Shown here: piece after piece, positions 3,501 to 62,200 of the stretch
Position numbering within the stretch: the stretch's first letter is position 1
Layout: each line of letters opens with the position of its first letter
From: Microcaecilia unicolor
Taxonomy: Eukaryota
Length of the DNA stretch: 64,000 nucleotides
NCBI RefSeq assembly: GCF_901765095.1
Contig: NW_021963017.1
Span: 110,253-174,252 of the forward strand
Reading direction: 5' to 3'
The notes under the pieces: model-generated
What the model was told of the DNA's origin: nothing
Seen by the model: the letters and a program-made list of their open reading frames with translations, nothing else
The model's database searches: none
Program-made: the position numbers and the translations under genes

Positions 3501-3835
3501 CATAGACTGCTACTAAATGGACTTGGAAAAATCCACAATTTCGGGAATAACATGTATAGAATGTTTGTACGTTTGGGAAGCTGCCAGGTGCCCTTGACCT
3601 GGATTGGCCGCTGTCGGGGACAGGATGCTGGGCTTGATGGGCCTTTGGTCTTTTCCCAGTGTGGCATTACTTATGTACTTATTCACTTGTTCAGAACCCT
3701 TATTTTATCATCCTCACTTTAATATTACCTTATCTCTTGTCTGTCCTAATTAGATTTTAAGCTCTGTCGAGCTTCATGTTCAAGTGTACAGCGCTGCGTA
3801 CGTCTAGTAGCGCTTTAGAAATGATAAGTAGTAGA
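540..3835 (+). mobile_element. CR1/L2-clade LINE ORF2 + 3'UTR, degraded. APE endonuclease ~675-1500 (YANARSLRNK..ITETW), RT ~1700-3100 (FADD box at ~2715), CR1-type C-terminus 3121-3516 (KLWNLLPENVVKAVSLAEFKKGLDGFLKD), and a 3'UTR ending in a GTAGTAGAAG-like tail.
   Basis: A series of collinear ORFs (883-1863, 1698-2330, 2358-2552, 2553-2798, 2710-3099, 3121-3516) is separated only by stops or frameshifts. The 3'UTR block recurs at 43380-43560 and the tail motif at 13760-13810. Confidence 0.8.
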
Positions 3836-5450
3836 AGTAATAGTCTTCTTTCCAGCGGAGGAGAAGGGTCAGAGGGAATCCCAAAGGACTCATCGGAAGA
3901 GAAGTACCTGGGATCTACCTCTGATTCCCATGAGCGCTCCTGCTCAGTGTCAGACACAACCTGTGTCAAGGTACTCTGACACTGGACCTGCCTCAATGCC
4001 GAGGAACGATGTCCTCTATGGCGAAGTAGAGAAGTCTATGCCCAATCTGACTGCAGCGAAGCTCCCTCCACCGACGTTGAAAGGGAGTCGACCTGGGTGG
4101 CAGGCGGCACCAGAGTCGGAGACCTCACCACAGGAGCTGGGCCAGATACCACTACAGCAGATGGCACCAGAGGCACAAGCACCCCCAATACCGAAGCTGA
4201 TTGTCGCAGTAAGCCTTCCAAAAGTTCTGGAAACAAGGCCCAGATACGACTGTCAAGAGCCGCCATCGGAGAATGCTGCGGAGCCGGTGGAACAGGCGGT
4301 GTCAGAATCTGTGGGGGCTCAGGAGTAGGTACCGGGCTGCCAAGAGACCGACTCACTGGCACCTCCTGTACCGAGAGGGAGCGGTCCTCTTGGCACCGAC
4401 GCTTCTCGGGTGCCGACTCAACGCCCCACAGCTCCCGGTACTGTAAGTCGAAGAAGAATGATGACGATGCTTCTTAGCCTTCGCTCGACAACCATCATCA
4501 AGACTCCTCAATACTGAAGAGGAGGATGTGGAATCCTCATGTCTCCTCGGGGCCGGGGGGCCTGCATAACAGGAGGCCTTCGAGACAGGTGGAGGCCTCG
4601 AGACAGGTGGAGACCCACTCAACGCCTCACTACTCCCAGCGCGAGTGGGTCTCCCAGCAGCCATCACCTCTCTCCTTGACGTCGATGCTCCTATCAATGC
4701 CGACGCTGCCGACCTCGGTACCAATGTCGATGTGGAAGGACCGGACTGAGCCCCAAAAGGTTTTTCTCGTTGGGCTTCTCGAGACACTTGGGTCCGTTTC
4801 TTCATACGAAGACACAGACTACAAGCAGCTGGGCTATGGTCCAGCCCAAGGCACTGGATACACCAGGCATGGGTATCTGTACCTGAGATGGTCTGGTTGA
4901 ACAGAGTACAACGTTTGAAGCCGCTGGGTGTCTTCGATGACATGGAAGAAAAAACGGCTTCGACGAAATCAAACAACGCGATTGTGCCAAAAAGAAAAAG
5001 CACAAAAAAAGGAGAAAAACCCAACTGCGCGGCTCAAAGGCCGGCCACATCGAAAAAGAAAGGAAACTTTAACAGGGAAAAAAAAAGTAAAAGAAGTACG
5101 GGAAAACTACCAGAAACTAGATTTTTTTTACATATATATTTAAAAGAAAAGAAAAAGACAAAAGAAATAAAGAATTAAAGAGGTGAGAATCTCACAGTAG
5201 TAGTTCTTCCTGGGCCTGAGAGAGGAGCGTCATGAAAACGAAATGCAGCTCACTGTGGATAGTAAAGAACGGAAGAGGCACACTCGTGTGGTGGGTGGAA
5301 AGTTGTTCGCGCATGTGTGGTTCGCGTTGCTCACGTGACAGAACTCTCTGGAAAGACTATTATTTTGCTTGCAAAATTTTTTCCCCGATTCTTGGGCCGC
5401 CGCTGACGTCGACCCACTTGTGAGAACAAGCAGCCTGCTTGTCCTCTGAG
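3757..5450 (-). mobile_element. DIRS-like family A 5' fragment: terminal motif ccacTTGTGAGAACAAGCAGCCTGCTTGTCCTC at 5415-5450 and a gag-like ORF (4353-5024, C-X2-C...H...C-X2-C-like motif). Segment 3900-4350 is an inverted duplicate of the same gag region.
   Basis: 4450-5450 is collinear with 47100-47790. 3900-3995 equals the reverse complement of 47000-47095. The shared peptide AQCQTQPVSRYSDTGPAS is on + here and on - in the other copy. Confidence 0.55.
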
Positions 5451-5934
5451 AAAAAGGTTTTATATACAGAAAATCTTTTGTAAAATATCCCCCCTCCCAT
5501 ATGCAATAAAACTGATTTCCTCATTAGATCAGTGATGTACAGCTTTAGTAGCTATATTAGTCCAGGAGAAAATGAAATTTTTCTGGGCTGAGATACATTA
5601 TTTTTAGGGTCTTTTAAAAAGTTCTTAAAATCTATAAAACATTCCATGAAAAGAATGGGGTAAGTTTAATATCTAACAACTTTTAAGAAAATTGATTTTA
5701 TGATTTCAAGAAATTGCACAAATTTGAGGTGTACTTGAAGGTTTGGGTTAGTATACCGCACCATAAATGCTCACATAAAAGTCCTGTATAAGAATATTTG
5801 TGTAAAGATGCTTGTCAATTGTTTTTACTGCAATTAAACAAGGAAAAGAAAAATGGGGATGAGGATCTTGTTGCAGCTGCTGAACCCCCATTATGATTGG
5901 GGGTGGGGGAGATGTATTACATCAAAGCCAAATT

Positions 5935-18100: not shown

Positions 18101-18416
18101 GCTGGATAGCTTCCCATGTGCTGTTTCATATATAGCTCCTTTATCTTTTATGAGTATTCAGACACAGTTTAATGACAATATAATGAATAGTTTATGCAGT
18201 CTTTTTAATACTTGCATGTTTTTAGTTTAATAGTGTTACTTATTGCAATCTTTTAATTGTAATTTTGCAATCTTTAATTGCACCTTTAATGAGTTTTTGC
18301 TTTCAATGTAATACATTTATAATAAAAATCCATGCCGGGTCATTCATGTGGTGCTACTGAATAAAGGATTTTTGCATATCATCTCCCAGGACTGGAGTCA
18401 GTTTGTCACCCTCTGC
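15119..18416. mobile_element. Unclassified ~3.3-kb element bounded by ~400-bp terminal inverted repeats (15119-15540 and 18040-18416, ~85% identical, one ~70-bp indel). Inserted into the DIRS-B recombinase gene. Internal ORFs (16097-16402, 16647-17003, minus strand) have no recognised domain.
   Basis: Reverse complement of 15119-15140 = 18395-18416 (gagtcagtttgtcaccctctgc); arm similarity continues ~400 bp inward. DIRS-B homology resumes exactly outside both arms. Confidence 0.5.
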
Positions 18417-19527
18417 GCACATGGAATGGAGACAACACCTTAGGAAGAAAGGAAGGAACCTTGTAAAGGGAAACTAAGTCCTCCATAAAGTCGAGATAAG
18501 GGTCACGACATGACAGACCCTGCAGCTCAGAACTTTTTGTGCCGAGGTAACTGTGACCAAAAAAACAGTCTTGAGAGTAAGGTCCTTAATAGAGGTCAAC
18601 TGCACAGGCTCAAACAGAGCCTCCGCAAGTACTCAGAAAACCAGGTTGAGGTCCTCACAAGGGACGTGCAGGGGGCGGGTAGGGGGCGCAAATGCGCCAC
18701 ACCTTTCATGAAAAGGGCCACCTTGCCATGCAAGGCCAGGGAGGTGCCCTTCACATTACCCTGAAGAAAGACCAGCTACTTGGACCCTCAGGGAGCCCAA
18801 TACCCTGACAGAAGGTAGGGATGTGGAAGACTTCTGAGAGTGCAGCAGAGTACAAACTACTGTGGGAGAAAAATCACACTTCTTTAAGCACTTCCTCTCA
18901 ATGGCCAGACCATAAACGAGAAGGGGTCCATATCTTCCATTTCTACTAGAACTTGCCAGAGAAGGTCCCAGCCTCTAGGCAATAAGAGATTCACTTTTGA
19001 ACAGGCACACGAGGACTGTGTGCCAAGGTCTGCGAGGCCAATCTGGGGCTACAAGAAAGATTACACGAGGATGACATGCAATCCTGTGTAAAAGACAGCC
19101 TATCAGAGATCATGGAAGGAACACATGCAGAGGTTCCACTTGTGGCCAAGGCTGGACTAGGGCATCTATCCCCCGAGAGGCTGGCTCCCTTCAATGCTTG
19201 AAGAAATGTCCCACTTTCACACTGGATCTGGAAGCCATCAGATTGACCAACAGGGGGTCCCACTAGTTCAGAATGAGCTGAAAGCTCAGCTGCCCCAGCT
19301 CCCATTCTCCCAGATCCAGGAGACAGCAACTGAGAAAGTCCACGTGCACATGAGGGTCTGCAGGTGTTTCTTTGCCCACTGACAAAGGTATGCTGCTTCC
19401 AAGGCTACTGCCTGACTTCTGGTGCCGCCATACTTGTTGATATAAGCCACGGCTATGGCAATGTCAGACATCAACCTGACCGCCTTTCCCCAAAGGAGCA
19501 GCTGGAACTCTAGAAGGACCAGATAAA

Positions 19528-19546
19528 CCCCCCCCCCCCCCCCCCC
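19528..19546. repeat. C19 homopolymer. Similar runs: C13 24865-24877, C23 29864-29886 (followed by T19), C16 51150-51165, G23 55294-55316, G18 55410-55427.
   Basis: Direct observation. Confidence 0.9.
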
Positions 19547-20499
19547 AGGTCACCTCCTGCTGAGTCCAGGTCCCCTGCACCATATGACCTAGGCAATGAG
19601 CTCCCCAGTCAAGGAGATTCACATATTCATATCCATGGTGACAAGCACCCATAGTGGGGGATCCAGCAGCACCCGTCTCAGGAGGTGAACTGGGATGTCC
19701 CCCACCAGACCAGACCGATTTTTGGCTTGGGCGAAAGTGTCTGAGGAAAGTCCTGTGAGAAGAGAGCCCACAAAAACAACGGAGCCTGCCACAAGAGCCA
19801 CATTTGAGCATCGCACACAGCACCACCTCCAGCAACACAGCCATGGAAACCAGGAGCTGCAATTGGTCCCATACTGAGGGGACCATGAGCTCATATAATC
19901 TGCGCTACTGCGCTCAAAGCTTCTCTGCCCTGTCCTCCAGGAAGGACACCATCCCCTGGGCAGAGTCAAAGCGGACTCCCAGATATTCCAGGACCGGGGA
20001 GGGAACCAGATGCCTCAAATCACAACCCAGCCCAGGTCTCCAACCAAGAGATGACCTGAAAGGTGGACAGCCTGATCTCTTTGGCTGAATCTGCCTGAAT
20101 CAGCCAGTTGTCCAGTAAAGATGTACTGTGATCCCCTGGTGATGTAGCTAAAGCAGCAACTACCACCATAACATTGGAGAAGGTGTGGGGGGCTTTGACC
20201 AGACCAAAGGGCAAGGCCCGAATGTCACGGCCTCACCGTGCTTGGCTCAGTTCCGATGCCTGACATCAGGGTCAGGTCCCGTGCATTCTTTGATGCTTCC
20301 TGCCTCTCTGCCCCTTGTTGACACACCAGTGCAGGTGCTCCTGGCATGGCTCCTGCAGGTCTCCTCCTCACTAATCATGCTGCACATGTGTGGGACTGTT
20401 TTTGACCAGCCATGGGTGGGAAGGGTCAGATGACGTCAGACGCCCAGAGATCTATTTCAAAGGACAGCTGACTCAGTTCCTTGCCTTGCAACAGGTCTG

Positions 20500-21249: not shown

Positions 21250-24200
21250 AAACTTACAACAATATATATGTGATGGATAAGAAAGTTTTTGCTGAGCAGT
21301 TTTGTTATTCAGTCTGTGTGTCTGGCTACAGTATGACAACCTGCTCCAGAGAGAACAATTATTTTGTATTGGCTTAGTGAGATACCAATAAAGATTTTTT
21401 TCTGGTTGCGCCTATATCTAAGTCTGATTGTCTCTCTTATTCCAGCCTCTAAGGCTGAAGTGTTTTCACCAGGGGCAATGGACAGGATTACACAAGGGTG
21501 ATTCGCCTACGGAAGACTGAACAGTCTGCCCCAACCATGGTCCAAGGGCTCAGCAAAACCTGTATGTGACACCAAAACTGCAAATAGCACCCAAGAATAC
21601 AGAAGCAAAGATAATGTTTGTGATGGGCTATGATGGGAATATGCAGATAGGCCTTAGCAAGATCCTAGGAGGTCTAGAACTTTCCCACACCCCTGAGGGA
21701 GCAAAAACATAACAACCCGTATGTACCTCGTGTAGCCACCTGAGAAGCGCTGCAACGTTGTATAGCCTAAGATCAGACAGATTGACTCCCCCCTCGCTAC
21801 CTGACGGGTGAGCTTGCTATACCCAATCCTAGCCCTGCGACCTCCCCAAATAAAGGACGATATCACTCCCCTATAGGCCCCCTCATCTTTACTATGAATC
21901 CACAGTGGCATCATTTGCAGAGCATAAAGGATCTTAGGGAACAACACCATTTTAACGAGTGCCACACGTCCTAAAAACGAAACAGGGAGATCCTTCCATT
22001 GTCGACATAGCTGTTTAATGGCCTCTAACTTGTCGCAGACATTTTTCTTGTATATATAGGTAAAGTCTAAATGCAGGTATACTCCCAGGTATTTCATAGG
22101 TCCCATTGTCAAGGCCAGAGGGAAGTCGGAGCAGCTCTTGCAGACACAATTAGCGGACAGCAACATTGCCTCAGACTTATCAAAATTAAACCTCAAACTG
22201 GAGAAAAATCCAAATTGTTGGATAAGATTTATCAAAATGGGTATCCCCCTTGTCGCCTGCCCCAGGAATATTAACATATCATCTGCAAAAAGATTGATTT
22301 TGTATTCACACTTCTCTACTCTTATTCCTGCCAAAGGCTCCAAGGCCAAAACAAAAACCATAGGCGACAGAGGGCACCCCTGTCTCGTACCCCTTTGCAG
22401 CGCAAACGACAGGGACAAAGCATTATTTATCAAAATTTGTGCTGTGGGAATCCTGTATAAAGCCAGGATCCCGTGCAGAAACTCCCCATATATGCCAAAC
22501 TGTGGCAAAACCCAAAAAAGATGGTCCCATAAAATTTTATCGAATGCTTTTTCTGCATCTAGGCTAACAATGATATCTCCCGGCTTACCCCCCCTTTGCT
22601 TGAATTGCACTCAACGCTCTTAGAATGTTAGTAGAGGCATACCTCCCTGGGATGAAGCCCAATTGGTCCTCATGCACTAGAATGGGAAGCACCTTTCCCA
22701 ACCGGGCAGCCATAATGCTAGCGAACAGTTTTATGTCCTGATTTAATAAGGAGATGGGCTGGTAGAAACACAGCAGCACCCGATCGCGGCCTGGTTTAGG
22801 CAGAACTATTATAGATGCATGTGTCATGGCACCCGTGGACTGCCCTTCTGTGCACAATGCTTCGCATACTTCGCTAAATGGCCCTGCTATCTGACCTCCC
22901 AGAATCTTGTAAAATTCAGGCCCCGGAGCTTTTGCTAGCATAAGCTTCTTTATAGCTTCTTATATTTCAAGCCCCTGAACAGACACATTCAAGATATCTC
23001 GGTGTTCTTGCGTCAGCGAGGGGAGCCTAAGGCCCTGAAAGAATGCCTCCCGTTTGTTCAAGTCACAACTCCCCGTCATACAGAGATTTATAAAAATCCA
23101 CAAACGCCTTTTGTAACTCCTCTTCCCTAGACAGTGTCTGCCCCGTTACAGATTTGATACAATTTATTAGTTGCTTAGCAGGTCTGTTTCGAACCAGGGT
23201 GGCCAGCAATCTATCCGTCTTATTCCCCCATCTGTGGAGTCGGTATTTGTATAACTGAATGTCCCTCATCGCCCGTTTATTCAAAGTGTCATTAATCTTA
23301 GTTTTTAACTCTCTGAAGGTGTTCCTAGCCGCTTCATCTCCCCACGCTGCCAATGTCCTAGCATCTTGGAGTAGGCGGAACTGGGTAAGAAGTTCCCCAT
23401 CTCCTTTTTTTCGAGTTCTGGCCATGTATTCTATAATTTGTCCTCTCATCACTGCCTTCCCTGCTTCCCACAAGGCGATCGGGTCAGATACAGATGACTT
23501 GTTATCTGTTAGGTAGTGTCCCCATTCCTTTTGGAGAAATTCCTTGAATTCTGGCTCTTGGTACAAGGTAGGATTCATGCGCCAACCCAATCTACTCCTA
23601 ACCCTCGAGAGGCTTATATCCACCCAAATCAGGCTATGATCAGAGACCACTCTCGCCTCAATCTCCGCAGAACGACTAACAGAGAAGAGAGTTTGTGATA
23701 GTAAAATATAATCTAACCTAGCCTGACATTTATGTACATGTGAGTAGAAAGTGTATTCTCTGTCATCCGGGTGTAGCACCCTCCAAACGTCCACTAGCCC
23801 CAGATCTCTTTGGAGAAGCCCTATTCCCCCTGTCCTCCATTCCCTTAGGCTGTGCTTTCGATGGATTATAGTCAACTAGTGGATCTGCCGTTATATTAAA
23901 ATCCCCTCCCACAACCAGTTGATATTCTGGCAGTGGTGCCAGAGCAGCCAACAGCTGAGAGTAGAATTTCTGGGAGTAGACGTTCGGAGCATATACCGAA
24001 CACAAAGCTACCCAGTCCCTGAATACTACCCGCCCAAATCACAAATCTTCCCTCAGGGTCCTGAACAATTTTGTGGCAGGTACTATCTAACCCTTTACTC
24101 ACGAGGATAGCTACTCCCCTTTGTCTACTGTTGTACGAAGAGTAGGCAATCTCACCCACCCAACCCTGTTTCAACTTAAGATGTTCTGGTGAAGACAAAT

Positions 24201-26350
24201 GGGTCTCCTGAAGCATAAGAACATCCACTCTTAATTGCCTACTATAATGCAAAAATTTTTTACGTTTAATTGGAGAATGAATGCCACCTACATTAAAGTA
24301 AGCTAACCATAAACTACCCATTCCCCCACACCAGGGCCATACTAATATAATACCGTAAGGACACAAAGACCCTCCAGGGCGACATCCCAGCAGTGCCGCT
24401 CCACAAGGAAAGCCATTCATGTTTCACCTGCAAGCATAGCAACCGCACTACAGCAACAAGTCTCTCATTCTTCAGCCTCAGCCCCCTATTCTTCCCCTGG
24501 AACCCCAACTTCGACCTCCCTTCCCCCCTTCCCAACTCCCCAACCTCCCTCCCCTCCCCATACCCCCATCTCACTCACTCTCAATACATCAATTTTATAC
24601 CAGACATCCCTCCCCAACAGCCTCACATGCATATCCACATCCGCACCCCCACTCATCCCGGCACAGATCCCTATGAAGCGAAACAAAATCCACACACCCG
24701 TTTCCAAACTCCCCCTCCATCCCACCCCACCTTTCGCCCTGATTGAGGCCCTATCTCCCTCAATCATGCCCAAAAAAGAAGAGCACCTAACCCCCTCCCC
24801 TGCCTCCTCCCACTGTAACCAAGGCAAATAAACAGCATGAAGTAACAAACAATCTAACAATCCACCCCCCCCCCCCCAAGGGGTGCTAACCCCTACCCAA
24901 CAATCAATGAATTAACTGCAATCAGTGACAGTACTTATTATGTCTGGATCCAACTGTCATCTCTCTGACAAAAATAGGTTCATTCGCCTCGTGTCGGCAC
25001 GTTGCTGCCGTTCATTTGTGGCACAACATTTCCGGTCAGAAACCTTCTCTGCCGTTTCAAGGGGGGAGGGGAGGACACGCACCCTCCACAACCGACCAGT
25101 GTCCTGTCAATCCCATCCCCTTAGACCCCCATGTCGGGTCCAGGAACCATTCTATACTGGAGGTGAAGTATGCGCACCCCCTCATCTCGTGTGAATATCA
25201 ATGTGCTATGCAGTATATATTTTATTCTTTGCGAGATCCGCTTACTGACCAATTCTTAAACTAATCATCCAAGCTGGAAAAACATCACTTTGCTTCTTCC
25301 ACTCTATAATCATATTTTTTAGCTTGCAACAGTCTATTAGTTGGCTAATCAAATTAAGATAACACTCCATGTCCTCCTTAACCAGGCAATCCCCGCACCT
25401 CCTCGGCCCTTTCTGGTACATTCAGTAACTTCTTCAGAAAGGCTTGTAGATCCTCTGCCTTTGTTAGAGTGAAAGTATGGTTGTTATGGGTAATCCGTAC
25501 CCTTGCTGGGTATTGGAATGCAAATTTAATTCCTTTCTCAAACAGCTTAGTACAGTACGGTGCCAACACCTTCCTCTGCTCCATGACTGACAGAAAAATC
25601 CTGGAACAGCAATATCCGATTTCCCTTAAATTCCACATTGCGCTGTTTCTTATATTGCTCACGAATTTTTGCTTTTATAGCATAATTCAGGTACCTTGCA
25701 ATGATCAGCCTTGGCCTCCCGTTGGCTTTCCTTCGCAGCCCGATGCGATGGACCCGCTCCACCTGACCCATGCCCATCTCCGGCTCTAGGCCCAGTTGTC
25801 TGGGAAGCCAGCTTTCTGTCAGCTTTCAACTCCACATCAGGGACAGACTCAGGAACACCCACAATCCTGATGTTATTCCATCGGCCCCTGTTTTACTGAT
25901 CCTCCACTCGGTCTACCAACGTACGGATTTGCGTCTCCAGTTCTCTTATACGCCCTTCTGCTGCTACCATATGATCTTCCTGAGCAGAGATACGCTCTTC
26001 TGCATGCTGTATTCTGGCCACGTGGCTGGTGATACATTCCCCGATTTCATCCATGCCTGCGAGTAACTTGGCAAGCTTATCATCCAATAACTGCGACATA
26101 TGCTTTAGGGATACTTGCACCATGTCCTCGTGCGCCGGAGCTAGGTTTTGGCTCCGCAACGGTGGGGTTGGAGGTGCTGGCAACACCGGTGACGCAATCT
26201 TGCTTTTCACCGCGCTGCCTTTCTCCTTTTCAGAGCTTTCACTGGCATTCCGCTCCTACACACCCGTTAATAACACACCATTTGTTTTTGCACACATTCG
26301 GTTGGCTCACAGGGCTACTTAACATGATATCAAGGTGCCGTAATCGTCAT
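21250..26350 (-). mobile_element. L1-clade LINE, near full length. ORF1 26210-25378 (coiled coil ...RIRELETQIRTLVDRVEDQ; CTD ...RLIIARYLNYAIKAKIREQ...KGNRILLFQDFS; ...IKFAFQYPARVRITHNNHTFT), C-rich spacer 25370-24420, ORF2 endonuclease 24420-23063 (SPIKRKKFL..LMLQETHL; ...SDHSLIWVDISL), RT 22941-21654 (LDAEKAFDKI; FADD), then 3' region.
   Basis: Track ORFs 25893-26210, 25547-25777, 25378-25662, 23896-24420, 23063-23875, 22585-22941 and 21654-22610, all on the minus strand and collinear. Confidence 0.75.
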
Positions 26351-39100: not shown

Positions 39101-40678
39101 ATCAAATGCATTTATTGGAATACCCGACGTGGCCATGTTTCGCCCTCAGGCTGCGTCAGGGGTACAAACTATGAAAACAAAACAAGTATAAAAACATATA
39201 TAGCCATACATAATAACAATGTCACAAACCAGAATGTTACTGGGGAAATTAGTAACATTCTGGTTTGTGTATTGCAGGGGAATGTCCTTGAGACAGCCCA
39301 TGTTTGGGCGAAACGTGCATGTCGGGCAGATGATCCCCTGAGTCCGACAAACTAAACAAACTTGAAAAGATAAGTTAATTTGAGATATTTCGCTAACTAT
39401 AAGAGGAGGCTATATATTTAAAAAGAACCGGTGAAGATATTGATGTTGTATATATCGCTAAAGCCTGAAATTGGTAGTGATTAACATCACTGAGGTTCTG
39501 GGGAAATATCTATGATATGATCTGAAGATTAAAAGCTTTGAATGTTCTGACTTATATGCTTTAGGAGACACATATCCAGAGATGGGATCAGCATCTTTTA
39601 CAATCCAGATTGTACACTGAATGCTATATGCATTTTGATCCCTCTGGGGAGAAAAAAAAAGGAGGGGGGGTAGTTAGCACTTTATGTTCGTAGGCATACC
39701 TTTTGTCCATGACAGTATTTACAAAGATCCTCTTGGGTGGTGCTTAGCAATTAAAAGCTGGCTTACTGGGCAGTGCTATACTTTCATAAATATATATACC
39801 CCGAATATTGGCTGGGGGAATTTTCCTATGATATACATGAAGCTCTCTCTAAATTCACTCAAGGTATGTTGCTACTGGGGGGTGATTTTAACCTGCCATA
39901 TGGGATGACACTAGATCAAGCTGAGGCTAGCTCAGCTTCTCGAAATTAATTTGATGAAATCATTGGATCTTTTGGATATTTGGCACTTACAGCATCCGAA
40001 ACAACAATGTACTCTTTTTACTCCTACACACAAGGTATATGTACTTGCATAGAAGTGTGCAGTAGGCAATTATGGGGACAGACTGTTGATTCACATATAA
40101 AAAGCATCCAAATTTCTGATTGTGCCCCGGTTTGGATATCTATGGGGGCCTTGGCTGAAGAGATGCGCCAAACCTTTTGGAGACTTAATACCTACTGAGG
40201 GACCCAGTGGCTTGTGCGGATATTAGAGCTGTCATGAAATGCTACCTGGACAGTAATGATAATGACACAGTTTTGGATGGAACTTTATGGGATGCTTTGA
40301 AAGCGGTGGTGAGAGGGCACTTGGTTAAGTGGGGTGCACGTAAGGAAAAAAAAGCTCAGGAGCAAATGGAGCTTAGGCTTCAAGCTCAACTAGTACATTT
40401 AGAGACAACATCCGAGATGCTCCACGGTTGAGCTTCTGAATCACTTACAGCAATGTAGAGCTGAACTGCATACCTTACAGGAAGAGAAAGTAGAGTTCAG
40501 ATGCATTTGCTTAAACAGAAGTTTCTTTGAATTTGGTAATAAGTCTGGTAGTATGTTGGCGAGAAATTTGCAGGACAAGGTGAGAGGGGCCACGATCTTG
40601 AAGATTAAAGGGCTGGATGGATCCCTACGCTACATGGATGGGGAGATTCATGAACATTTTATTCAATACTATAAGAAA

Positions 40679-42320
40679 CTAGCTCTACCCGGCCACGCGT
40701 TGCTGTGGCTCAGTCTGGTTAAATAGAAAAGAAAGAAAAGAGGAAGTGCACGTTTCTAATATGTTTAATTTCACAATGCTTGTGGGTATACAATATTTTT
40801 TGTTGTTCCATTGTGTGTGCAGAGATAAGAGATTGTCTGGTTTGCCGACTGTAGAACATGCAACATATAATTGTCCATATGAGAAGCAATCCGTGTGTAG
40901 ATGTAAACAGGTGAATTCTAAAGATTGGCCCTGAGCTTTGTTGATGGTGATTGCAAATGCCAATCGAATTGGGAATTGCAATCTCTTAAATTGAAATGGC
41001 ATATCTGCTGGAATCATAGGAATGCGAGGAATGAGGACATCTTCACCTTTGAAAGGTCCTGTCAAGACTGTTGCTTGTACGACATTGGTCATAAATTTTT
41101 TTACTGCAAGCCGCGTGCAGTTGCAAAGCTTTGGCTGGTTGATATTTCGCAACATGATAATTGGCACGCTGATTTTCAATTGCAGTACGTGCGGTGGCAT
41201 CCCTGGCAGATCGAGTGAATTGAAAAATTCTGTTGGATAATTAACCGCTTCATCTGCTTCCAGGACAGTGTCGACGGACTTGTATGTGAGTGGCTCGCTT
41301 TGAATGTTAGACTGAATAATATTGTTCAGTTCGTAGACGTCTTTGTTCTTGGCCGCAAGAATAGCTCGTTCACTCAGCGAATCGTGATTGTTATAATTGG
41401 TTAGAATATTGGGAAATACTCTCTCAACCAATTGTTCTTTTGACATCACTAAATTGGAGAAGTTATGAGGCAATGAAATTCGTCCTGAGGTCAGATCAAC
41501 CGGCACGTTTCCATTACCAATTTTCAGCAATTGATGTGACAATATCTGAGCTGATTGATCATTTTGCAATTGGACACGCATATTTGTAGTTAAGTTTAAC
41601 GTCTTTACGTGTTGCCACAAAGTAGAGCATTTTAGGCAAGCATTTATTTCGTCAGCTGGTGTGGATCGAGGAACTACAGGTAATGTTTGCCTGAAATGTC
41701 CTGCAAGCAATATTAATGTGTTCCCAAATGGTCTGATGTTTCCACACAAATCTTGCAATGATTGATCAAGAGCCTCGAGGGATTTTTTTTCGCTGTGCTG
41801 TTTCCTCAGCACATATTTGAGTTATTCTTTGTCTGTTTCGCTCGTTCGCTGATGCCCGTTCTTCCTCAGTTTGATTTGCAATTGTAGGTATATAAAAACA
41901 CGCGCGTATTCGAATGCAACTTTGTGTTGAAATTTCAAAGCAATCGGTGAAGACCTTTCAGAAATTTAAGCCACTGTCAGCCTGTCGCGTTGATTCTGTT
42001 GAGAACAAAGCAGATCTGAAGCTGCAGAACGCGATCGCCATGCTCGCAACCGTGCACCAAGTCTGGCTGCACGTCGCTGTGCTGTTTCCTCGGCACATAT
42101 TTGAGCCATTGTTTGTGTGTTTCGCTCGTTCGCTGATGGCCGTTGTTCCTCAGTTTGATTTGCAATTACTCGTCGCACTACTTCCACTCCGCGAGTACGA
42201 CAGCTGTGACATAAAAACATGCGCGTATTCGAATGCAACGTTGTGTCCAAATTTGAAAGCAATCGGTGAAGAACTTTCGGAGATTTAAGATTTTGAACAA
42301 ACGAACATTTACATTTTTAT
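40679..42320 (-). mobile_element. Helitron-like fragment. ORF 41812-40685 is the C-terminal half of a PIF1-family helicase (LILLAGHFRQTLPVV; FAITINKAQGQSLE...GQLYVACSTVG). The 3' terminus has a short GC hairpin (GCCACagcaacgcGTGGC), 9 nt, then CTAG (40682-40679) abutting host T. The host target is A|T (aagaaA|Ttatatag). The 5' end is non-canonical or truncated.
   Basis: 375-aa open frame with helicase motifs IV-VI of Helitron Rep/Hel proteins. Terminus and target dinucleotide fit Helitron rules. The split L1 codons flank it. Confidence 0.55.
41795..42290. repeat. Two direct copies of a ~180-215-bp unit (41795-41970 and 42075-42290) separated by ~100 bp, at the 5' side of the Helitron-like fragment. 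The helicase ORF's first codons (MLRKQHSEKK) lie in the first unit.
   Basis: cgctgtgctgtttcctc(a/g)gcacatatttgag...gtttgatttgcaatt...gcgcgtattcgaatgcaac...gcaatcggtgaaga...tttaag appears in both copies. Confidence 0.6.
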
Positions 42321-43319
42321 TTATATAGATTATGTAGTTAGGATCTCAATTTAAATGTTTCTGAAATTCAGGATTATCTTTCTCAGGTAATTCTCCTATG
42401 CCTCTCGGAGGTTGATCAGGCTTTTCTTGAGGCTCCCTTTCCCATCAAGAGATCTTGAAAGTGATAAAGGGGTTGGGTGGGGGCAAAACTCCGGGTTTGG
42501 ATGGTTTTAGTGTTAATTCTATGAAATGTTTGGTATGGAGGTGAGCCCCCTCCTTCTCCGGATAGGCAATTCTAGTTGGGAGGGAGGGCGCTTGGCGAAG
42601 AGCATGTGAGAGGCTGGCATTTCTGTACTTTTGAAACCGGGCAGAGATTCAGCGGTTTGTGGTTCATATAGACCGATCTCCCTTATAAATGTAGATATCA
42701 AAATTTTGGCAAAGGTGATGGCAGATAGGATGGGTCAGGTGCTTCCTACATTTATTCACCAGGATCAGTCCTGATTCCAGCCCAGAGACAAGTGACTGAT
42801 AATATCTGTAGGACGCTGAAATTACTAAGGTTGGTTAGGGACTGTGCAGAACCAGTGACCTTTCTAGCTACTGATGCAGAAAAGGCCTTTGACAGGTTCG
42901 CTTGGCCCGTTCTTTGGCAAGTTATGTTGGTTATGGCATTTGGGCCGCAACTAATTGGATGGTTACAACAATTATATGCAGGACCAATGGCTTGGATCCG
43001 TACTAACGGTGGGTACACCAACACCATTTCAATAGAACGGGATACTCAACAGGGTTGTCCCCTTTCTCCATTGCTGCACTTGCTCAATGGGTTTGGTCTT
43101 TGGGAGATATACGGGGAATTGAAGTGGGAGATGACATGCATAAGATTGCTTTGTTTGTGGATGACTTCTTATTTTATATTACCTCTCCAGGGTTGACATT
43201 GTCTCCCCACAGGATGAATCTAGATTGCGGCAGGATTTTCCTTTTTACTGGGCAAAACGTAAACTTTTGTTGTTTGGGTATTCTAAAGACTGGTGCCAGG
43301 TTTTTTTCTTTAAATTATC

Positions 43320-43560
43320 TTAGCGGAGTTTAAAAAAGGTTTGTACGGCTTCCTAAATGAAAAGTCCATAGACCGATATTAAATGGACTTGGGGGAAAAT
43401 CCACTATTTCTGGGATAAGCAGCATAAAATGGTTTGTACATTTTTGGGATCTTGCCGGGTATTTGTGACCTGGATTGGCCACTGTTGGAAACAGGATGCT
43501 GGGCTCAATGGACCTTTGGTCTTTCCCAGTATGGCAATACTTATGTACTTATGGCGACAG
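43320..43560 (+). mobile_element. CR1 3'-end fragment (AEFKKGLYGFLNEKSIDRY* + conserved 3'UTR) nested in the L1.
   Basis: 43380-43560 is near-identical to 3520-3700. Confidence 0.5.
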
Positions 43561-44882
43561 ATTTGAGATTTACTTTGTTGGCGAAAAGGTTGGTAGGGTT
43601 GTACAGCTATTTTATCATGCCTTTTTTTTCCTTTTTCAGACATTCCCAGAGGTTGTACCTCAGTCTATTCTGCGGGTTCTTCACGCGGGGATATCCACAT
43701 TCATCTACGGTGGGAAGCCCTCTCGACTTTATCAAAAAGTGACGTGGCAGGCAGTTGACCTGGTGGGCAGAGGTGTTCCCAATGTTCTTTGGTATTATTG
43801 GCCTTGAGAATTAAAGCTGATTTAGCCTGGGAAAGCAAAGATACTTACCTGTAGCAGGTATTCTCCAAGGACAGCAGGACGATTGTTCTCACATGTGGGT
43901 CGAAGTACGCAGCAGCCCAGGAATCAGGAAAAATTTTGCAAGCAAAATAATAACGTCTTTCCAGAGAGTTCCAGGAACTGCGCATGCACGAACGACTTCC
44001 CACCCGCCGTGTGAGCGTGCCTCTTTAGTTTAATCAAAAAGCATAAAAACAACAACAACTCCAAAGGGAAGGAGGGCAGGTTTGTGAGAACAATCAGCCT
44101 GCTGTCCTCGGAGAATACCTGCTACAGGTAAGTATCTTCGCTTTTTCTGAGGACAAGCAGGCTGCTTGTTCTCACATGTGGGGTATCCCTAGCAACCAGT
44201 CTCACTCAAAACAATGAACATTGGTCAACTGGGCCTCGCAATGGCGAGGACATAACAGATTGACCTGAAACCAAAATCAACTAACAGAGTACAGCCTGGA
44301 ACAGAATCAAAATGGGTCTAGGGGGGGTGGAGTTGGATTCTAAACCCCGAACAGATTCTGCAGCACCACCTGCCCAAACCGACTGTCGCATCAGGTATCT
44401 TGCTGAAGGCAGTAATGAGATGTGAATGTGTGGACTGATTACCACGTTGCAGCCTTGCAAATCTCTTCAATGGAGGCCAACTTTAAGTGGGCCACTGACG
44501 CAGCCATGGCTCTAACATTAAGAGCTGTGACATGATCCTGTAGAGTCAACCCAACTTGGGCATAAGTGAAGGAAATGCAATCCGCTAACCAATTAAAAAT
44601 TGTGCGTTTTCCGATGGCGACTCCCCTCCTGTTGGGGTCGAAAGAAACAAACTGGGCGGACTATCTGAAGGGCTTTGTCCGCTCCACGTAAAAACGCCAA
44701 TGCTCTCTTGAAGTCCAAGGTATGCAAACTGCTTTCACCAGGCAGGTATGAGGACGGGGAAAAAATGTTGGCAAGACAATTGACTGGTTCAGATGGAACT
44801 CAGACACCACCTTCGGCAAGAACTTAGGGTGCATGCGAAGGACTACTCTGTTCTGATGAAACTTGATATAAAGGTGCATGAA

Positions 44883-45080
44883 CTACCAGGGCCTGAAGCT
44901 CACTGACCCTACGAGCTGAAGTAACAGCCACCAAGAAATGACCTTCCAGGTCAAATACTTCAGATGGCAGGAATTCAGTGGCTCAAAAGGAATTTTCATC
45001 AGCTGGGTGAGAACGACGATGAGATCCCATGACACTGGTGGAGGTTTGACCGGGGGCTTTGACAAAAGCAAACCTCTCAT
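44883..45080 (-). CDS. DIRS-A tyrosine recombinase N-terminal core-binding segment (PPPVSWDLIVVLTQLMKIPFEPLNSCHLKYLTWKV); the catalytic part appears truncated.
   Basis: The W.L..VL..L...PFEPL motif is shared with 61484-61708(-) and resembles 52410-52829(-). Confidence 0.4.
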   Translation of the reverse strand: MRGLLLSKPPVKPPPVSWDLIVVLTQLMKIPFEPLNSCHLKYLTWKVISWWLLLQLVGSVSFRPW

Positions 45081-45368
45081 GAAGCAAACAACTAAAGGCT
45101 GTCCAGAGATAGGCTTACCTTCTACACGGCGATGATAAGCACTAATGCACTAAGGTGAACTCTTACAGAGTTCATCTTGAGACCCAACTCTGACAAGAGT
45201 AGAAGGTATTCAAGCAGGGTCTGTGTAGAACAAGAAAGGGGATCTAGGGCCTTGCTGTCACACCAGACGGCAAACCTCCTCCATTTGAAAGAGTAACACC
45301 TCCTGGTGGAATCTTTTCTGGAAGCAAGACTTGGGAGACACCCTCTGAAAGACCCAAGGAGGCGAATT

Positions 45369-45866
45369 CTAAGCTCTCAACATCCAGGCCGAGAGAGCCA
45401 GGGACTGGAGGCTGGGATGTAGAAGCGACCCCTCATTCTGAGTGATGAGGGTTGGAAAACATTCCAATCTCCACAGTTCTTCAAAAGACAACTCCAGAAG
45501 AAGAGGGAACCAAATCTGATGCAGCCAGAAAGGAGCTATCAGAATCATGGTTCCATAATCTTGTTTGAGTTTCAGCAAACTCTTCCCTATTAGAGGTATG
45601 GGAGGATATGCATACAGAAGGCCTGATCCCCAATGCAGGAGAAAGGCATCCAACGCTAGTCTGTCGTGGGCCTGAAGCCTGGAACAGAACTGAGGGACCT
45701 TGTGATTGATCTGATTGGTAAAAAGATCCACAGAGGGGGTGCCACACGCTCGGAAGATCTTGCGGACAACGTCCATGTTAAGTGACCACTCGTGAGGTTG
45801 CATTACCCTGCTCAGTCTGTCGGCCAGACTGTTTACGCCTGCCAGATAAGTGGCTTGGAGAAACAT
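45369..45866 (-). CDS. DIRS-A RNase H C-terminus + conserved DIRS/Ngaro downstream domain (YLAGVNSLADRLSR...VDLFTNQINHKVPQFCS...LIAPFWLHQIWFPLLLEL).
   Basis: N..AD.LSR RNase H end and the VDLFA..N..LP.F.S...APPW..Q.WFP block. Confidence 0.5.
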   Translation of the reverse strand: MFLQATYLAGVNSLADRLSRVMQPHEWSLNMDVVRKIFRACGTPSVDLFTNQINHKVPQFCSRLQAHDRLALDAFLLHWGSGLLYAYPPIPLIGKSLLKLKQDYGTMILIAPFWLHQIWFPLLLELSFEELWRLECFPTLITQNEGSLLHPSLQSLALSAWMLRA

Positions 45867-46707
45867 GCAGTGATGGCGTGCCCAAAGCTACATCTGGACG
45901 GCTTCCTGACAAAGAGGGCAAGATCCGGTGCCCCCTTGCTTGTCGGTATAATACATGGCAACCTGATTGACTGTCTGAATCAATATGACTTGGTTGGACA
46001 GCCGGTCTCTGAAAGCATTTAGAGCATTCCAGATCACTTGCACTTCCAGGAGATTGGATCTGAAGACCTTTCTCCTGAAAGGACCAAGCTCCTTGAGTGT
46101 GAAGCCCATCTACATGAGCTCCCCACCCCAGGAGGGATGCATCCGTCGTCAGCACTTTTTGTGGCTGAGGAATTTGGAATGGACGTCCCAAGGTCAAATT
46201 GGGCCAAATCGTCCACCACTGCAAGGAATTCCGAAAGTCGGTGGACAGTTGGATCACATCCTCTAGACTTCCCGCAGCTTGATACCACTGGGAAGCTAGG
46301 GTCCAATGAGCTGATCTCATGTGTAGGCGTGCCATGGGAGTCACATAAACTGTCGAGGCCATGTGCCCCAGAAGTCTCAACATCTGCCGAGCTGTGATCT
46401 GTTGAGACGCTCGAACGAAGGACACTAGGGACAGGAGGTTGTATGCCCTCGCCTCGGGGAGATAAGCTCGAGCTGTCTTTGTGTTCAACAGTGCTCCAAT
46501 GAATTCCAATTTTTGAACTGATTTGAGATGGGACTTTGAATAATTGATTACGAACCCCAGTAGTTCTAGCACCTGAATAGTTATTCGCATGGACTGTAGA
46601 GCGCCTGCCGAGGTGCTCTTCACCAGCCAATCATCGAGATAAGGGAACACATGCTTTCCCAGTCTGTGCAGCGACGCAGCGACTACCACCAAGCACTTCG
46701 TGAACAC
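45778..46707 (-). CDS. DIRS-A RT / RNase H ORF (309 aa: ...FPYLDDWLVKS..., INYSKSHL, ...LEFIGALLN..., ...TTDASLLGWGAHV...).
   Basis: YxDD box, the KS.L...FLG-type motif and the TDAS..GWGA RNase H start. Confidence 0.55.
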   Translation of the reverse strand: MFTKCLVVVAASLHRLGKHVFPYLDDWLVKSTSAGALQSMRITIQVLELLGFVINYSKSHLKSVQKLEFIGALLNTKTARAYLPEARAYNLLSLVSFVRASQQITARQMLRLLGHMASTVYVTPMARLHMRSAHWTLASQWYQAAGSLEDVIQLSTDFRNSLQWWTIWPNLTLGRPFQIPQPQKVLTTDASLLGWGAHVDGLHTQGAWSFQEKGLQIQSPGSASDLECSKCFQRPAVQPSHIDSDSQSGCHVLYRQARGHRILPSLSGSRPDVALGTPSLHVSPSHLSGRRKQSGRQTEQGNATSRVVT

Positions 46708-46918
46708 TCTGGGCGCAGATGCCAGACCAAAGGGCTGTACACAATACTGAAAGTGCTGAGTTCCCAGCCGAAATTGAAGCTACTTCCTGTGAGCTGGGAG
46801 TATCGAGATGTGTGTATAAGCATTCTTTAAATCCGGAGAGCATAGCCAATCGTTCTCCTGAATCATGGGAAGAAGTGTGCCTAGGGAAACCATCCTGAGC
46901 TTTTCTCGAACCAGATAA

Positions 46919-47419
46919 TTATTCAGGCCACCCAGGTCGACTCCCCTTCGACATCGGTGGAGTGGGATTGGGCATCGACTTCTCGACATCGCCACAGAGG
47001 ACATCGTTCCTCAGCGTCGAGGCAGGTCCAGTGTCAGAATACCTTGACACAGGTTGTGTCTGACACTGAGCAAGAGCGCTCGTGGGAATCAGAGGAAGAT
47101 CCCAGGTACTTCTGATGAATCCTTTGGGAGGCCTCGAGACAGGTGGAGATTCACTTGACGCCTCACTGCTCCCAGTGCGAGTTGGTCTCTCAGCAGCCAT
47201 TACCTCTCTCCTCGACGTCGATGCTCCTGTCGATGTCGACGATGCCAACCTTGGTACCAATGTCGATGTCGAGGGTCCGGACTGAGCCCCAAAAAGCTTT
47301 TCCCATTGGGCTTCTTGGGACGCTTGGGTCCGTTTCTTCATACGAAGACAGACTACAAGCAGCTGGGCTATGGTCGGGCCCAATCTGTACCTGAGATGGT
47401 CCGGTTGCACCGAGTACAA
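46919..47419 (-). CDS. DIRS-A gag-like ORF (166 aa).
   Basis: Homologous to the second copy at 4353-5024(-). Confidence 0.4.
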   Translation of the reverse strand: MYSVQPDHLRYRLGPTIAQLLVVCLRMKKRTQASQEAQWEKLFGAQSGPSTSTLVPRLASSTSTGASTSRREVMAAERPTRTGSSEASSESPPVSRPPKGFIRSTWDLPLIPTSALAQCQTQPVSRYSDTGPASTLRNDVLCGDVEKSMPNPTPPMSKGSRPGWPE

Positions 47420-49179
47420 CGTTTGAAGCTGCTGGGTGTCTTCGATGACATGGAAGAAAAAACGGTTTTGATGAAATCAAACGACAAAAAAAGCACAAAA
47501 AAAGGAAAAAAAACCCGACCGTGCAGCCAAAAGGCCGAAGCGATTCTCACAGAGAAGTTCTTCCTGGGCCTCAGAGAGAAGCGACGCGTAAAACAAACTG
47601 CACCTCACCGCGGAGAAAAGAAGAACTAAAGAGGCACAGTCACATGGTGGGCAGGAAGTCGTTCGCGTTAGTCACGCGACATAATTCTCTGGAAAGACTA
47701 TTATTTTGCTTGAAAAACTTTTCCAGATTCCTGGGCCGCTGCGGACGTCGACCCACATGTGAGAACAAGCAGCCTGCTTGTCCTCAGAGAATGTGGATTA
47801 CATTCTTCATTGGTTAGGCTAGAGCAACATGGAATGCAGGGGTTTACCTTGCAGAGTTCTCTTTGGGCCTCTTTCCAAAAACATATCAGAAGATTTCAGA
47901 AAATCCATGGGTATTCCATCTACTTTTTTTAAGGAGCTGCCCTAAATCTAGACTCAGAGGTGGCCGTCGCTCTTCATCACTGCCCTATATGAAATATGAA
48001 CCTGCCTTTTCAGTTGGGGTGGGATTTGTGACATTACAACGTTGGGGATAATTGGTTTTGCTTAGGTTTAGGGATATGTTTTATGTGGGGGATTTGATCC
48101 CATTTCCGAGGTTACAAAAGACGTTTCGGATTCCTGCTACTGATTTTTATTTTCAAGTCACACACTACATTTCCTGTCAAGGGTGGTTACAGGCAAATCC
48201 TGATGACACAGAGCATTTTGAAAATCTATAGAAAGATTTGGAAAAGTTGAGGGGTGTGGTTTCCATTATTTATTGGTTCCTTAGAGGGGGGAATTTCAGA
48301 AACATGCTTTTATGGACCACTGGGAAAAAGATTTTGGTAGTACACTGACAGTGAGTGAATGGCAAGCAGTATGTCTGGAGATTAAGAAAGCTTCAATTTG
48401 TGTCTTGTTGAAAGAGAATGCTTATAAAGTCCTTACCCAATGGTATTATGCTCCAGTACAGTTGCATAAGATGTTTCCCACAGCCCCTGAAATTTGCTGG
48501 CATTGGGGTAAAGACTGAGGGACATTTCTACACATCTGGTGGGAATGTGACTTAATTCAGGATTTTTGGACTGCAGTAACAGAGTTACTTACTCTCCTTC
48601 AGTTGGGGACTCTATTTCCTAAAGACCTTAAGTGGTGTTTATTGGGCTTGAATAATCAATGAGGCCTTAAATGGCAGTGGAGATTCAAACGTATGTGTCT
48701 GGCAGTGGAGATTCAAACGTATGTGTCTGGCAGCGGCTAAATCTGATATAGCTGCTCATTGGAAGCGATCTGCAGGCTCCACAAAACTGGATTGGATCTT
48801 CAAATTGTAGACTGTTAGTGAACTAGAAAAGTTAACTGATAAACTGATGAATGGACTCATCTGGAACCCATACTGCAATTGGGGGTGACCCTCATGAGGT
48901 TCTTCAAGTTTTTGCCCAAGGGGGAAGGGGTATTATTAAGGTAGCAATCTGGGGCACTGAAGAGTACCTGTGCTCTAGAGTACTACCGATTGGTTTCTTT
49001 TGTAGAGGTGTAAGGGGGGGGGGGGATTGTAAGGGTTTGAGGGGGCTGCTTTTCCAATAAAAGAAATGTATGTGTTTTTGCTGTGTTTAGCAATATTCTT
49101 GATGGTTGTATTTCTATCAACTGTTTATGATTCTCTATGCTTACATTAATAAAAACCTATTGTTACAAAAAAAAAAAAG

Positions 49180-60689: not shown

Positions 60690-62200
60690 GAGAAATGTCT
60701 TCTTACCTGATAATTTTCTTTCCTTGAATCATAGCAGATGAACCCAGAAACAAATGGGTTATGACCATTTACCAGCAGATAGAGATAGAGTACAAGTACT
60801 AAACTCTGACAGATAGGATGGTAAGCAGCTAGTCAGCCACTATTTCTCATAAAAATGCGTTACGAAAGAACATGCCAAACAAAACTTCTCCTTCCTCATA
60901 GAAAGGAGGAATAATATATGAACAGGAACTTGAAGAAACCTGAACCTGTAACAACAATCCCCAAACAGAAAAAGTGAACACCTAACCCAGAAGGTCGTTG
61001 AGGGAGGGCCTCCAGATTTATCTGCTGTGATTCAAGGAAAGAAAATTATCAGGCAAGACAAATTTCCCCTTCCTCATCATCAGCAACAGATAAACCCAGA
61101 GACAAATGGGATGTAGCAAAGCAGTCCTTATGCTGGGCAGGTGACAAACACCAGCAGAAAGTACTGATGCTCCAAAGTATATGCCTCCAAGTACTATAGT
61201 AGAACTTGATGTCGAAAACATGCAAAGATGCAAAATCCACATCACATGCCTCCCTGCTAATGAATGGAAGGAACAAAGGCTGATTAATGTGAAAAGATGA
61301 GGTGAATTTCAGCAAGGAGGACAGCACAGTTCTGGATTCAGAAAAGGTAAGGAATGGATCTCTGAAGGATAAGACCTGAATCTAAAAGATTCATCTAGCC
61401 AAAGTAACCACTACAAGCAAAACAGACTCTAAGGTTTTAAGGTCCTTGACAGTAGCTTTCTTCAAGAGCTCAAAGGGAGACTTCTAAAGGGCCCTGAGAA
61501 CCAGTTTAAGATTCCAAACAAGGGAAGGAGCACATAGAGGAGGCTTAAGAAGACTGACTCCCCCACTAAGAAAATGCACCACATCAGGGTAAGAAGACAA
61601 GGAAGAATGGGCCAGATAGCCACAATAACATTCCAAGGCAGCCACTTGAACCCTTAGAAAGTTGTAGGCCATACCCTTTTCAAAAACTTCTTGTAAAAAA
61701 AAAGCCAAAATTTGATGTAAAGATTACTGAAACGTGGAAATGGCCCTTTCCCAACAAAATGCTTGAAATACTCTCCATACCCAAGCATATGCAAAAGATG
61801 TGGAATGCTTCTTAGCCAGAAGTAAAGTAGTAATCAAATCCTCAAGATATCCTTTTCATCCTTAGTTGCGACCTGTCAAGATCCAAGCTGTAAGACCAAC
61901 TAGGGACCGCAGGTGATGACTTGGACAGCGCAGCTTGCTCCGCACTTACCAGGTCCAGATTGTGGATCTGGGAACCTGGGAATCACCCGTTAGGCTCAAT
62001 CAAGCTGTGCAGCCTCAGCCTGCACTGCTAGGAGCTAGGCCAAGCATCAGGAGCAACAGCCTGAACAACCTACCATCTGCTGGAGGTAGGGAAATACTGA
62101 AGTTTTCCAATCAGCACCAGCCCACATACCTGCAACGTCACTGGAATGGAGAAATTATGTATTACCTGATAATTTACATTCCTTTAGGCAACTACACTGT
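60690..62200 (-). mobile_element. DIRS-like family B 3' region: recombinase N-terminal segment (61484-61708: ...LLKPPLCAPSLVWNLKLVLRAL) plus an inverted/direct terminal-repeat complex (60697-60740 inverted vs 61020-61060; direct 60745-60772 vs 61093-61120).
   Basis: Shares the aaagaaaattatcaggtaa / ttacctgataattttc terminal block with 14530 and 62530. Confidence 0.4.

Follow-up and report, generated by a model that had tools for sequence, protein, structure and literature searches.

Is the pile of mobile elements in one intron of the centromere protein J gene (CENPJ) of the caecilian Microcaecilia unicolor a single old retrotransposon that was entered by younger ones, and what order of ages follows from the nesting? 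The DNA concerned belongs to a stretch of 64,000 nucleotides of contig NW_021963017.1 (the window, whose own numbering is used for all positions), in which pieces of an L1 retrotransposon are separated by three foreign blocks: a Helitron, the tail of a CR1-type long interspersed nuclear element (LINE) and a DIRS1-type element. The best explanation of the locus, in which we have high confidence, is that one L1 in the CENPJ intron was later interrupted by these three elements.

The L1 was followed by protein profile, since the window contains no other copy with DNA similarity to it. With the stitched + strand translation 713 proteins were retrieved, mostly of about 1260 amino acids (aa) with Exo_endo_phos and RVT_1 domains; these are L1-type open reading frame 2 (ORF2) proteins of frogs and fishes, and their identity is 28-34%. 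Mapping was done by tblastn with seven ORF2 proteins and with a 1262-position hidden Markov model (HMM) built from 60 ORF2 homologs (PF03372 and PF00078). Four ORF2 segments are present, all on the + strand, and HMM positions rise along them from about 5 to 1238 of 1262, in agreement with the initial annotation, which had described the L1 motifs as collinear on the + strand across the three blocks. The single profile matches comprise HMM positions 26-71 (39520-39663), 121-417 (ending at 40678), approximately 418-716 (42330-43204, in blocks from 453 to 716), 819-885 (43622-43822) and 920-1238 (47878-48849).

The first L1 segment (39466..40678) extends from about codon 5 of ORF2 through the endonuclease and the linker to HMM position 417 (…IHEHFIQYYKK). 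At approximately 39466 the N-terminus reads SLKLVVINI, against SKLKLVSWNV in the consensus; the 5' limit of the L1 is uncertain, and the start proposed initially at 39600 is to be moved, as the match begins at or before about 39466, at least 134 nucleotides (nt) earlier. The second segment (42330..43314, HMM 418 to about 755) carries the reverse transcriptase (RT) domain with the DAEKAFDR and FVDD motifs, both already recognised by the first reading, and Pfam reports RVT_1 with 30.2 bits on a single open piece (42792-43193). For the endonuclease Pfam gives a weak match to Exo_endo_phos_2 (E = 0.028), while the profile aligns over HMM 26-716. The third segment (43553..43831) covers HMM positions from about 792 to 888, and its block 819-885 extends over the DIRS junction once the DIRS element is excised. 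The fourth (47792..49178) takes the ORF2 from about HMM 889 to 1238 and continues into a degenerate Cys-His motif, the 3' untranslated region (UTR), the polyadenylation signal AATAAA (49148-49153) and a poly(A) of 12 residues (49167-49178), signal and tail being located where the L1 was thought to end. The C-terminal Cys-His domain aligns over HMM 1054-1182 with 95 bits and has the motif C-W-H-W…H…C, its second Cys being mutated. The decay of this copy shows in its frame, which changes at least 11 times over 3.9 kb. Within the decayed C-terminus of ORF2 a perfect 28-bp tandem duplication (2.2 units, TGGCAGTGGAGATTCAAACGTATGTGTC) is found at 48672-48733, which is much younger than the L1 because its units are 100% identical.

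As in the vertebrate L1-superfamily elements of fishes and amphibians, a single ORF2 of about 1260 aa comprises an apurinic-type endonuclease, an RT and a C-terminal Cys-His domain, and AATAAA and a poly(A) tail come after it. The focal copy differs in being heavily frameshifted, in its identity of only 30-35% to the nearest database proteins and in having neither a recognisable ORF1, as Pfam gave no match upstream of 39466, nor a recognisable target duplication.

How the segments join was examined by removing 40679-42329, 43315-43552 and 43832-47791 in silico and repeating the profile search. Over the Helitron junction one alignment then runs through HMM 121-454, gapless and in a single frame (…IHEHFIQYYKK/LCS-stop-DLNLNVSEIQDYLSQV… aligned to …INETFKKFYSKLYTSESKEDEEEIKEFLEKL…), with L1 codons 417 and 418 adjacent. 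Over the DIRS junction HMM 819-927 is aligned (…YYWP-stop-ELKLI-stop-PG/CGLHSSLVRLEQH…) with a gap of 2 aa, so that the two parts meet at about 888 and 889-891. As a control the excision cut was shifted by single nucleotides and the crossing alignment was rescored. For the Helitron, 72.7 bits at offset 0 compare to 66.8 at -3 and 63.9 at +3; for the DIRS element, 37.0 bits at offset 0 compare to 36.6 at -3 and 36.1 at +3; in both cases the crossing alignment is lost at offsets of one or two nucleotides in either direction. With the frame restored at offset 0, the Helitron and the DIRS element thus each interrupt one and the same L1 at a single point, and to within a few nucleotides no L1 sequence was gained or lost there. 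The L1 parts are contiguous at these two junctions and not at the CR1 block, where about 120 bp of L1 are missing.

The first block is an internally deleted Helitron of 1,651 bp (40679..42329, - strand), delimited by its junction sequences and by the restoration of the L1 frame upon exact excision. Read on the - strand it is 5'-TCTATATAAAT … GCCACAGCAACGCGTGGC CGGGTAGAG CTAG-3', with the 5'-TC start TCTATATAA and the other end GAGCTAG, and it is inserted between A (40678) and T (42330), in the context …AAGAAA/element/TTATGT…, without target duplication. The TC and CTAG ends, the insertion between A and T and a weakly predicted hairpin coincide exactly with the junction set independently by the L1 alignment. 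In the initial annotation this junction read YYKK/LYRLCS; the correct reading is YYKK/LCS (40678/42330), and the LYR codons belong to the 5' end of the Helitron (TCTATATAA). Keeping LYR in the L1 was rejected, as the Helitron end would then not start with TC and the L1 would have three residues too many with respect to the profile spacing to the EIxxFL motif.

Within the Helitron an open frame of 375 aa (40685..41812 including the stop codon, - strand) encodes the C-terminal part of a RepHel helicase, with the second half of the PIF1 domain (1.2e-20 in Pfam) and the Pif1_2B_dom (6.5e-15). The frame is open over 1.1 kb with no frameshift. An exhaustive search gave 18,830 relatives, the long ones of 1490-2321 aa being 47-53% identical and carrying Helitron_like_N, PIF1 and Pif1_2B domains; the focal frame aligns to residues from about 1150 to 1590 of the proteins of 1490-1615 aa. 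No Rep (HUH) domain was found by Pfam in the focal element, in which the C-terminal part of the helicase alone is present. Helicase homology ends at about 41790, where the first of two diverged tandem units of the 5' region starts (41790-41970 and 42074-42289, - strand; repeat families of 93% and 90%); the two units are 75% identical over the whole unit with gaps by blastn. With the RepHel Helitrons of animals the element shares the TC and CTAG ends, an A/T insertion site that is not duplicated and the PIF1-family helicase, besides a weakly predicted hairpin 9 nt before CTAG; it is distinguished from them by retaining only the last 320 or so of about 1500 aa, by lacking the Rep (HUH) domain and by a non-coding 5' region of 520 bp with the diverged tandem duplication. 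Because Rep is absent and only the end of the helicase is kept, this copy is non-autonomous, and the lack of Rep fits a deleted copy that is a member of the family by its termini. What had been called a Helitron-like fragment is hence a Helitron by its PIF1 and Pif1_2B domains and by its relatives with Helitron_like_N, and it is no random fragment, both ends being intact and the deletion internal.

The third block, on the - strand, is a DIRS1-type tyrosine-recombinase retrotransposon of 3,960 bp (43832..47791), recognised by its repeats and by tblastn of its pol region. Both termini are kept and most of gag is deleted; the term near-complete, used initially, holds for the ends and is generous for the whole element. 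At the 3' side (43832..44030) lies the inverted terminal repeat 43860-44030 with a 28-nt terminal extension (43832-43859), and at the 5' side the inverted terminal repeat 47624..47791. The repeats 43860-44030 and 47624-47791/2 pair at 79% over 177 nt, and for the extension the only pairing partner is the internal complementary region (44083..44182). This region consists of two halves overlapping by 2 nt: 44083-44144 is complementary to the end 43832-43893 (58 of 62 positions, 94%) and 44143-44182 to the end 47752-47791 (39 of 40, 97.5%). Neither a repeat nor a target duplication is seen in the flanks (…CCTGGG and TGTGGA…), at a resolution of about 3 nt in either direction.

The decayed pol (44358..46971, - strand), with at least 3 frameshifts over 2.6 kb, was mapped by tblastn of the relatives P0121, P0122, P0123, P0141, P0143 and P0154, which place the domains in order: RT from 46971 to about 46054, RNase H and a methyltransferase-like region from 46130 to 45378, and recombinase from 45149 to 44358. 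The relatives are DIRS-type pol proteins of turtles and Pleurodeles with 43-46% identity, in which Pfam finds RVT_1 and RT_RNaseH and, weakly, Phage_integrase and SAM-like domains. Since the focal alignment begins exactly at the RVT_1 start of the relatives, the RT is complete. Upstream, 46972..47623 (- strand) contains the 5' UTR and a short gag remnant with an open frame at 47419-46922, and a comparison of this region with the gag portion of P0123 and of its relatives found no similarity. The approximately 150 codons upstream of the RT compare to about 660 residues in P0123, and the shortage of about 500 aa of gag is read as an internal deletion in the focal copy.

Published DIRS1 elements are built from inverted terminal repeats, a terminal extension and a two-part internal complementary region (PMC3266345). 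The focal element agrees with the DIRS1-like retrotransposons described by Piednoel et al. 2011 (PMC3266345) in its inverted terminal repeats with an extension at one end, in the two adjoining internal regions by the 3' repeat, which overlap by 2-3 nt and of which each is the complement of one terminus, in the order RT, RNase H, methyltransferase-like and recombinase, in the absence of a target duplication and in a length below 6 kb. It differs in its gag, most of which is lost (compared to Pleurodeles P0123 about 500 aa are lacking), and in being frameshifted, dead and internally deleted. Elsewhere in the window, 3879-5452 carries DIRS fragments of the same family, including one inverted piece (4101-3879), and position 5452 is a terminus matching 47791; positions 46927-47791 of the focal element are 78-83% identical to them.

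The second block (43315..43552, + strand, 238 bp) is a CR1-type LINE tail, truncated at its 5' side, with the last 15 or so ORF2 codons (…LAEFKKGLYGFLNEKSIDRY, followed by the stop), the 3' UTR and two copies of TACTTATG. The uncertainty of its limits is about 25 nt at the 5' side and 1 nt at the 3' side. The initial assignment as a CR1 tail agrees with the 81% identity to a longer copy in the window (3449-3682), which continues 5' as FFTQRVIKLWNLLPENVVKAVSLAEFKKGLDGFLKDKSIDCY before the stop, and with the ORF2 stop, the 3' UTR and the TACTTATG repeats. In both copies these repeats follow a predicted hairpin, and the focal tail has no poly(A). The C-terminal motif FFTQRV…LP…VV…FKKGLD presumably resembles that of CR1. 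According to the literature the CR1 3' end consists of a hairpin and an 8-bp repeat, the avian octamer being ATTCTRTG (PMC8665684). The focal tail shares with such LINEs the severe 5' truncation, the octamer repeat end, the predicted hairpin before it and the lack of poly(A); its octamer TACTTATG differs from the avian one, and the assignment to CR1 rather than to a neighbouring LINE clade such as L2 or Rex1 is a provisional one. The longer copy forms part of a nearly full-length CR1-type LINE (648-3682, + strand) with long open endonuclease and RT frames (e.g. 811-1860, 350 aa), an ORF2 end reading FFTQRVIKLWNLLPENVV…FKKGLDGFLKDKSIDCY and a stop, then the hairpin and the TACTTATG repeats. This LINE looks much younger than the focal L1.

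The host gene of the stack is CENPJ, as initially proposed: the best protein match of the - strand exons is the M. unicolor centromere protein J, and exons flank the stack on either side. The host intron measures 14.1 kb and lies between the upstream exon 50027-49896 (- strand; aa 141-184 of XP_030058251.1) and the downstream exon 35791-35624 (- strand; aa 176-231), within a series of CENPJ exons occupying 59677-8311 on the - strand. With respect to CENPJ the L1 and the CR1 tail are in antisense and the Helitron and the DIRS element in sense orientation. The region is eukaryotic and repeat-rich. The M. unicolor genome consists of more than 69% repeats, LINEs being the most abundant transposon type and DIRS the second (PMC10195157).

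Other introns of CENPJ in the window carry further DIRS-like pol or gag fragments (18412-20214, 52027-52565, 56694-58300 and 61178-61918, all on the - strand), of which the one at 56.7-58.3 kb corresponds to a part of gag in the Pleurodeles relative. Two large L1 ORF2 copies are located there too (21789-24327 on the - strand and 53933-56082 on the + strand). Inside the first of these L1 copies, 22452-22601 (- strand) matches residues 1080-1135 of XP_030058251.1, annotated as 'centromere protein J-like', so that these residues correspond to the RT of an intronic L1; judged from this match, the annotated C-terminus of that protein looks transposon-derived rather than part of CENPJ. Next to the focal L1, a second and unrelated L1 3' fragment (49179-49860, + strand, HMM about 1074-1240) begins where the focal poly(A) stops and ends in its own A-rich tail directly ahead of the CENPJ exon. 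The idea that the focal L1 inserted at 49179 into an older L1 fragment was unsupported, as the joined flanks gave no upstream extension of the L1 alignment. On the other side, the neighbour of the L1 is a foldback-like element (39122-39335), in which imperfect outer arms (CCCGACGTGGCCATGTTTCGCCC and GGGCGAAACGTGCATGTCGGG) enclose an inverted repeat of 19 bp without mismatch (39223-39241 and 39251-39269); it may represent a small hairpin-forming repeat family.

Several points weigh against the reading of one L1 with three later inserts, or against details of it. At the CR1 junction the L1 is collinear and not contiguous: 60 residues are found between HMM 716 and 819, where 60 of 60 homologs have 101-105. 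The 5' limit of the CR1 tail is uncertain, as another 10 nt (TGCCAG) may also match CR1, and the hairpins of both CR1 copies are not better than those of shuffled sequence. The Helitron hairpin (GCCACAGCAACGCGTGGC, 18 nt, 9 nt before CTAG) likewise has -5.8 kcal/mol and z = -0.37 versus shuffles, and there is no second Helitron copy in the window with which to compare its 5' end. The stitched recombinase region of the DIRS element gave no Pfam match, its assignment coming from the aligned relatives. For the L1 itself the only candidate target-site duplication is a 7-nt A-rich match (39420 and 49174), the 5' end being undefined, and with homologs only about 30-35% identical the junctions were placed by profile and not by a consensus of the same family.

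Among the alternatives, the one that survives best concerns the CR1 block, which might be the joint of a later deletion or rearrangement, due either to an unrelated 120-bp deletion after the CR1 insertion or to a double-strand-break repair which captured CR1 complementary DNA. About 40 aa of L1 (about 120 bp) are absent exactly in the CR1 interval while all 60 homologs keep their 101-105 residues, by inspection most of the missing part is at the junction itself, where the L1 stops at about HMM 755 and restarts at about 792, and no target duplication is present at the block. Against this stand the intact 3' structure and the 5' truncation, which are as expected for target-primed reverse transcription, and the L1 parts on either side, which stay collinear on the same strand. 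It is known that LINE integration can delete part of the target site. On balance such a joint is a real but minority possibility, and a loss of L1 sequence at the moment of CR1 insertion is the event we infer.

Far less probable is an assembly of the composite elsewhere, which would have reached the CENPJ intron as a whole by segmental duplication or gene conversion. It could draw on the missing L1 target duplication and on the two CENPJ gene models of the public M. unicolor assembly, which are placed on a chromosome of 376 Mb and on a scaffold of 366 kb and both differ slightly from the window. The large CENPJ exon of the window is 99.3-99.8% identical to these two models (4 residues differ from the chromosomal one and 1 residue from that on the 366-kb scaffold), compared to 77% for Geotrypetes and 66% for Rhinatrema; at about 99% identity to the window, the two models resemble haplotype or assembly duplicates of the whole gene, as this degree of similarity suggests. 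In addition, second copies in the window exist only for the CR1 and the DIRS families, in a different context and with no L1 similarity at the DNA level, and a transfer of the composite would leave the relative age order unchanged. The idea that at least two independent L1 insertions left the four L1-like stretches, in which case no age order would follow, is barely tenable: the window does have at least 6 other L1 fragments, one of them abutting the focal poly(A) at 49179, and at the CR1 block the L1 lacks contiguity, yet independent fragments would not meet twice at complementary coordinates (417/418 and about 888/889-891), on the same strand and in strictly ascending order, with the frame restored only at offset 0 modulo 3.

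For the single L1 with three later insertions the following course of events would account for the observations. An L1-superfamily LINE would have entered what is now the 14.1-kb CENPJ intron, in M. unicolor or a very close relative, in + orientation and thus antisense to CENPJ, with ORF2 kept almost from its start to the poly(A), and would have decayed afterwards. Three unrelated elements would later have entered it, at different points and by different mechanisms. While the identities, orientations and limits of the blocks, the continuity of the L1 and the host gene are established by the analysis, these mechanisms are derived from what is known of each superfamily. The internally deleted, non-autonomous Helitron would have been mobilised, presumably in trans and by rolling-circle transposition, and inserted into an AT dinucleotide with no duplication and no L1 loss. 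The CR1 element would have been reverse-transcribed from its hairpin and octamer 3' end by target-primed reverse transcription and truncated at the 5' side to 238 bp, about 120 bp of L1 probably being lost at the site during insertion. The gag-deleted DIRS1-type element would have passed through a circular intermediate recombined into the L1 by the tyrosine recombinase, leaving no target duplication.

Because the inserts are nested in it, the L1 is older than each of them, which upholds the early claim that it is the oldest part of the stack. Overall the initial reading holds, amended in the limits of the elements and in how complete they are. The density of frameshifts agrees with this order, with at least 11 in 3.9 kb for the L1, at least 3 in 2.6 kb for the DIRS pol and none in 1.1 kb for the Helitron frame. 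None of the three inserts lies within another, so that the nesting gives no order among them. Nested transposon insertions serve as a relative chronology, as in analyses of transposition in transposition and in the stratigraphy of transposable elements. The present stack has in common with such chronologies that the younger element splits the older one, that the halves of the host element are collinear and that the insert has its own terminal signatures; here there is a single locus with three independent inserts, no order among them and no genome-wide statistics.

A nested pile-up of transposons is ordinary in a repeat-rich genome; an L1 pierced by other elements within a long intron is to be expected, since the genome comprises more than 69% repeats dominated by LINEs and DIRS (PMC10195157). 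The stack has no evident function and provides a relative chronology only. The locus neatly illustrates three integration signatures in one host element, i.e. the Helitron between A and T, the DIRS1 insertion without duplication and the CR1 insertion with a target deletion. On its own it matters little, and a chronology would need a genome-wide survey of nested insertions. One long shot is an exonisation or co-option of the 375-aa helicase frame, which is still open and co-oriented with CENPJ. Another is that the DIRS element carries its own clock: if its termini were templated from the internal complementary region, as in the published circle-junction model, its insertion could be dated by the 5 mismatches among 102 paired positions. 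If true, such a clock together with the nesting would allow the activity of DIRS, Helitron and CR1 elements in caecilians to be calibrated against L1 genome-wide. At the level of the present locus, the nesting means that mobility of the Helitron family, of the CR1 family and of the DIRS1 family in this lineage came after the family of the focal L1.

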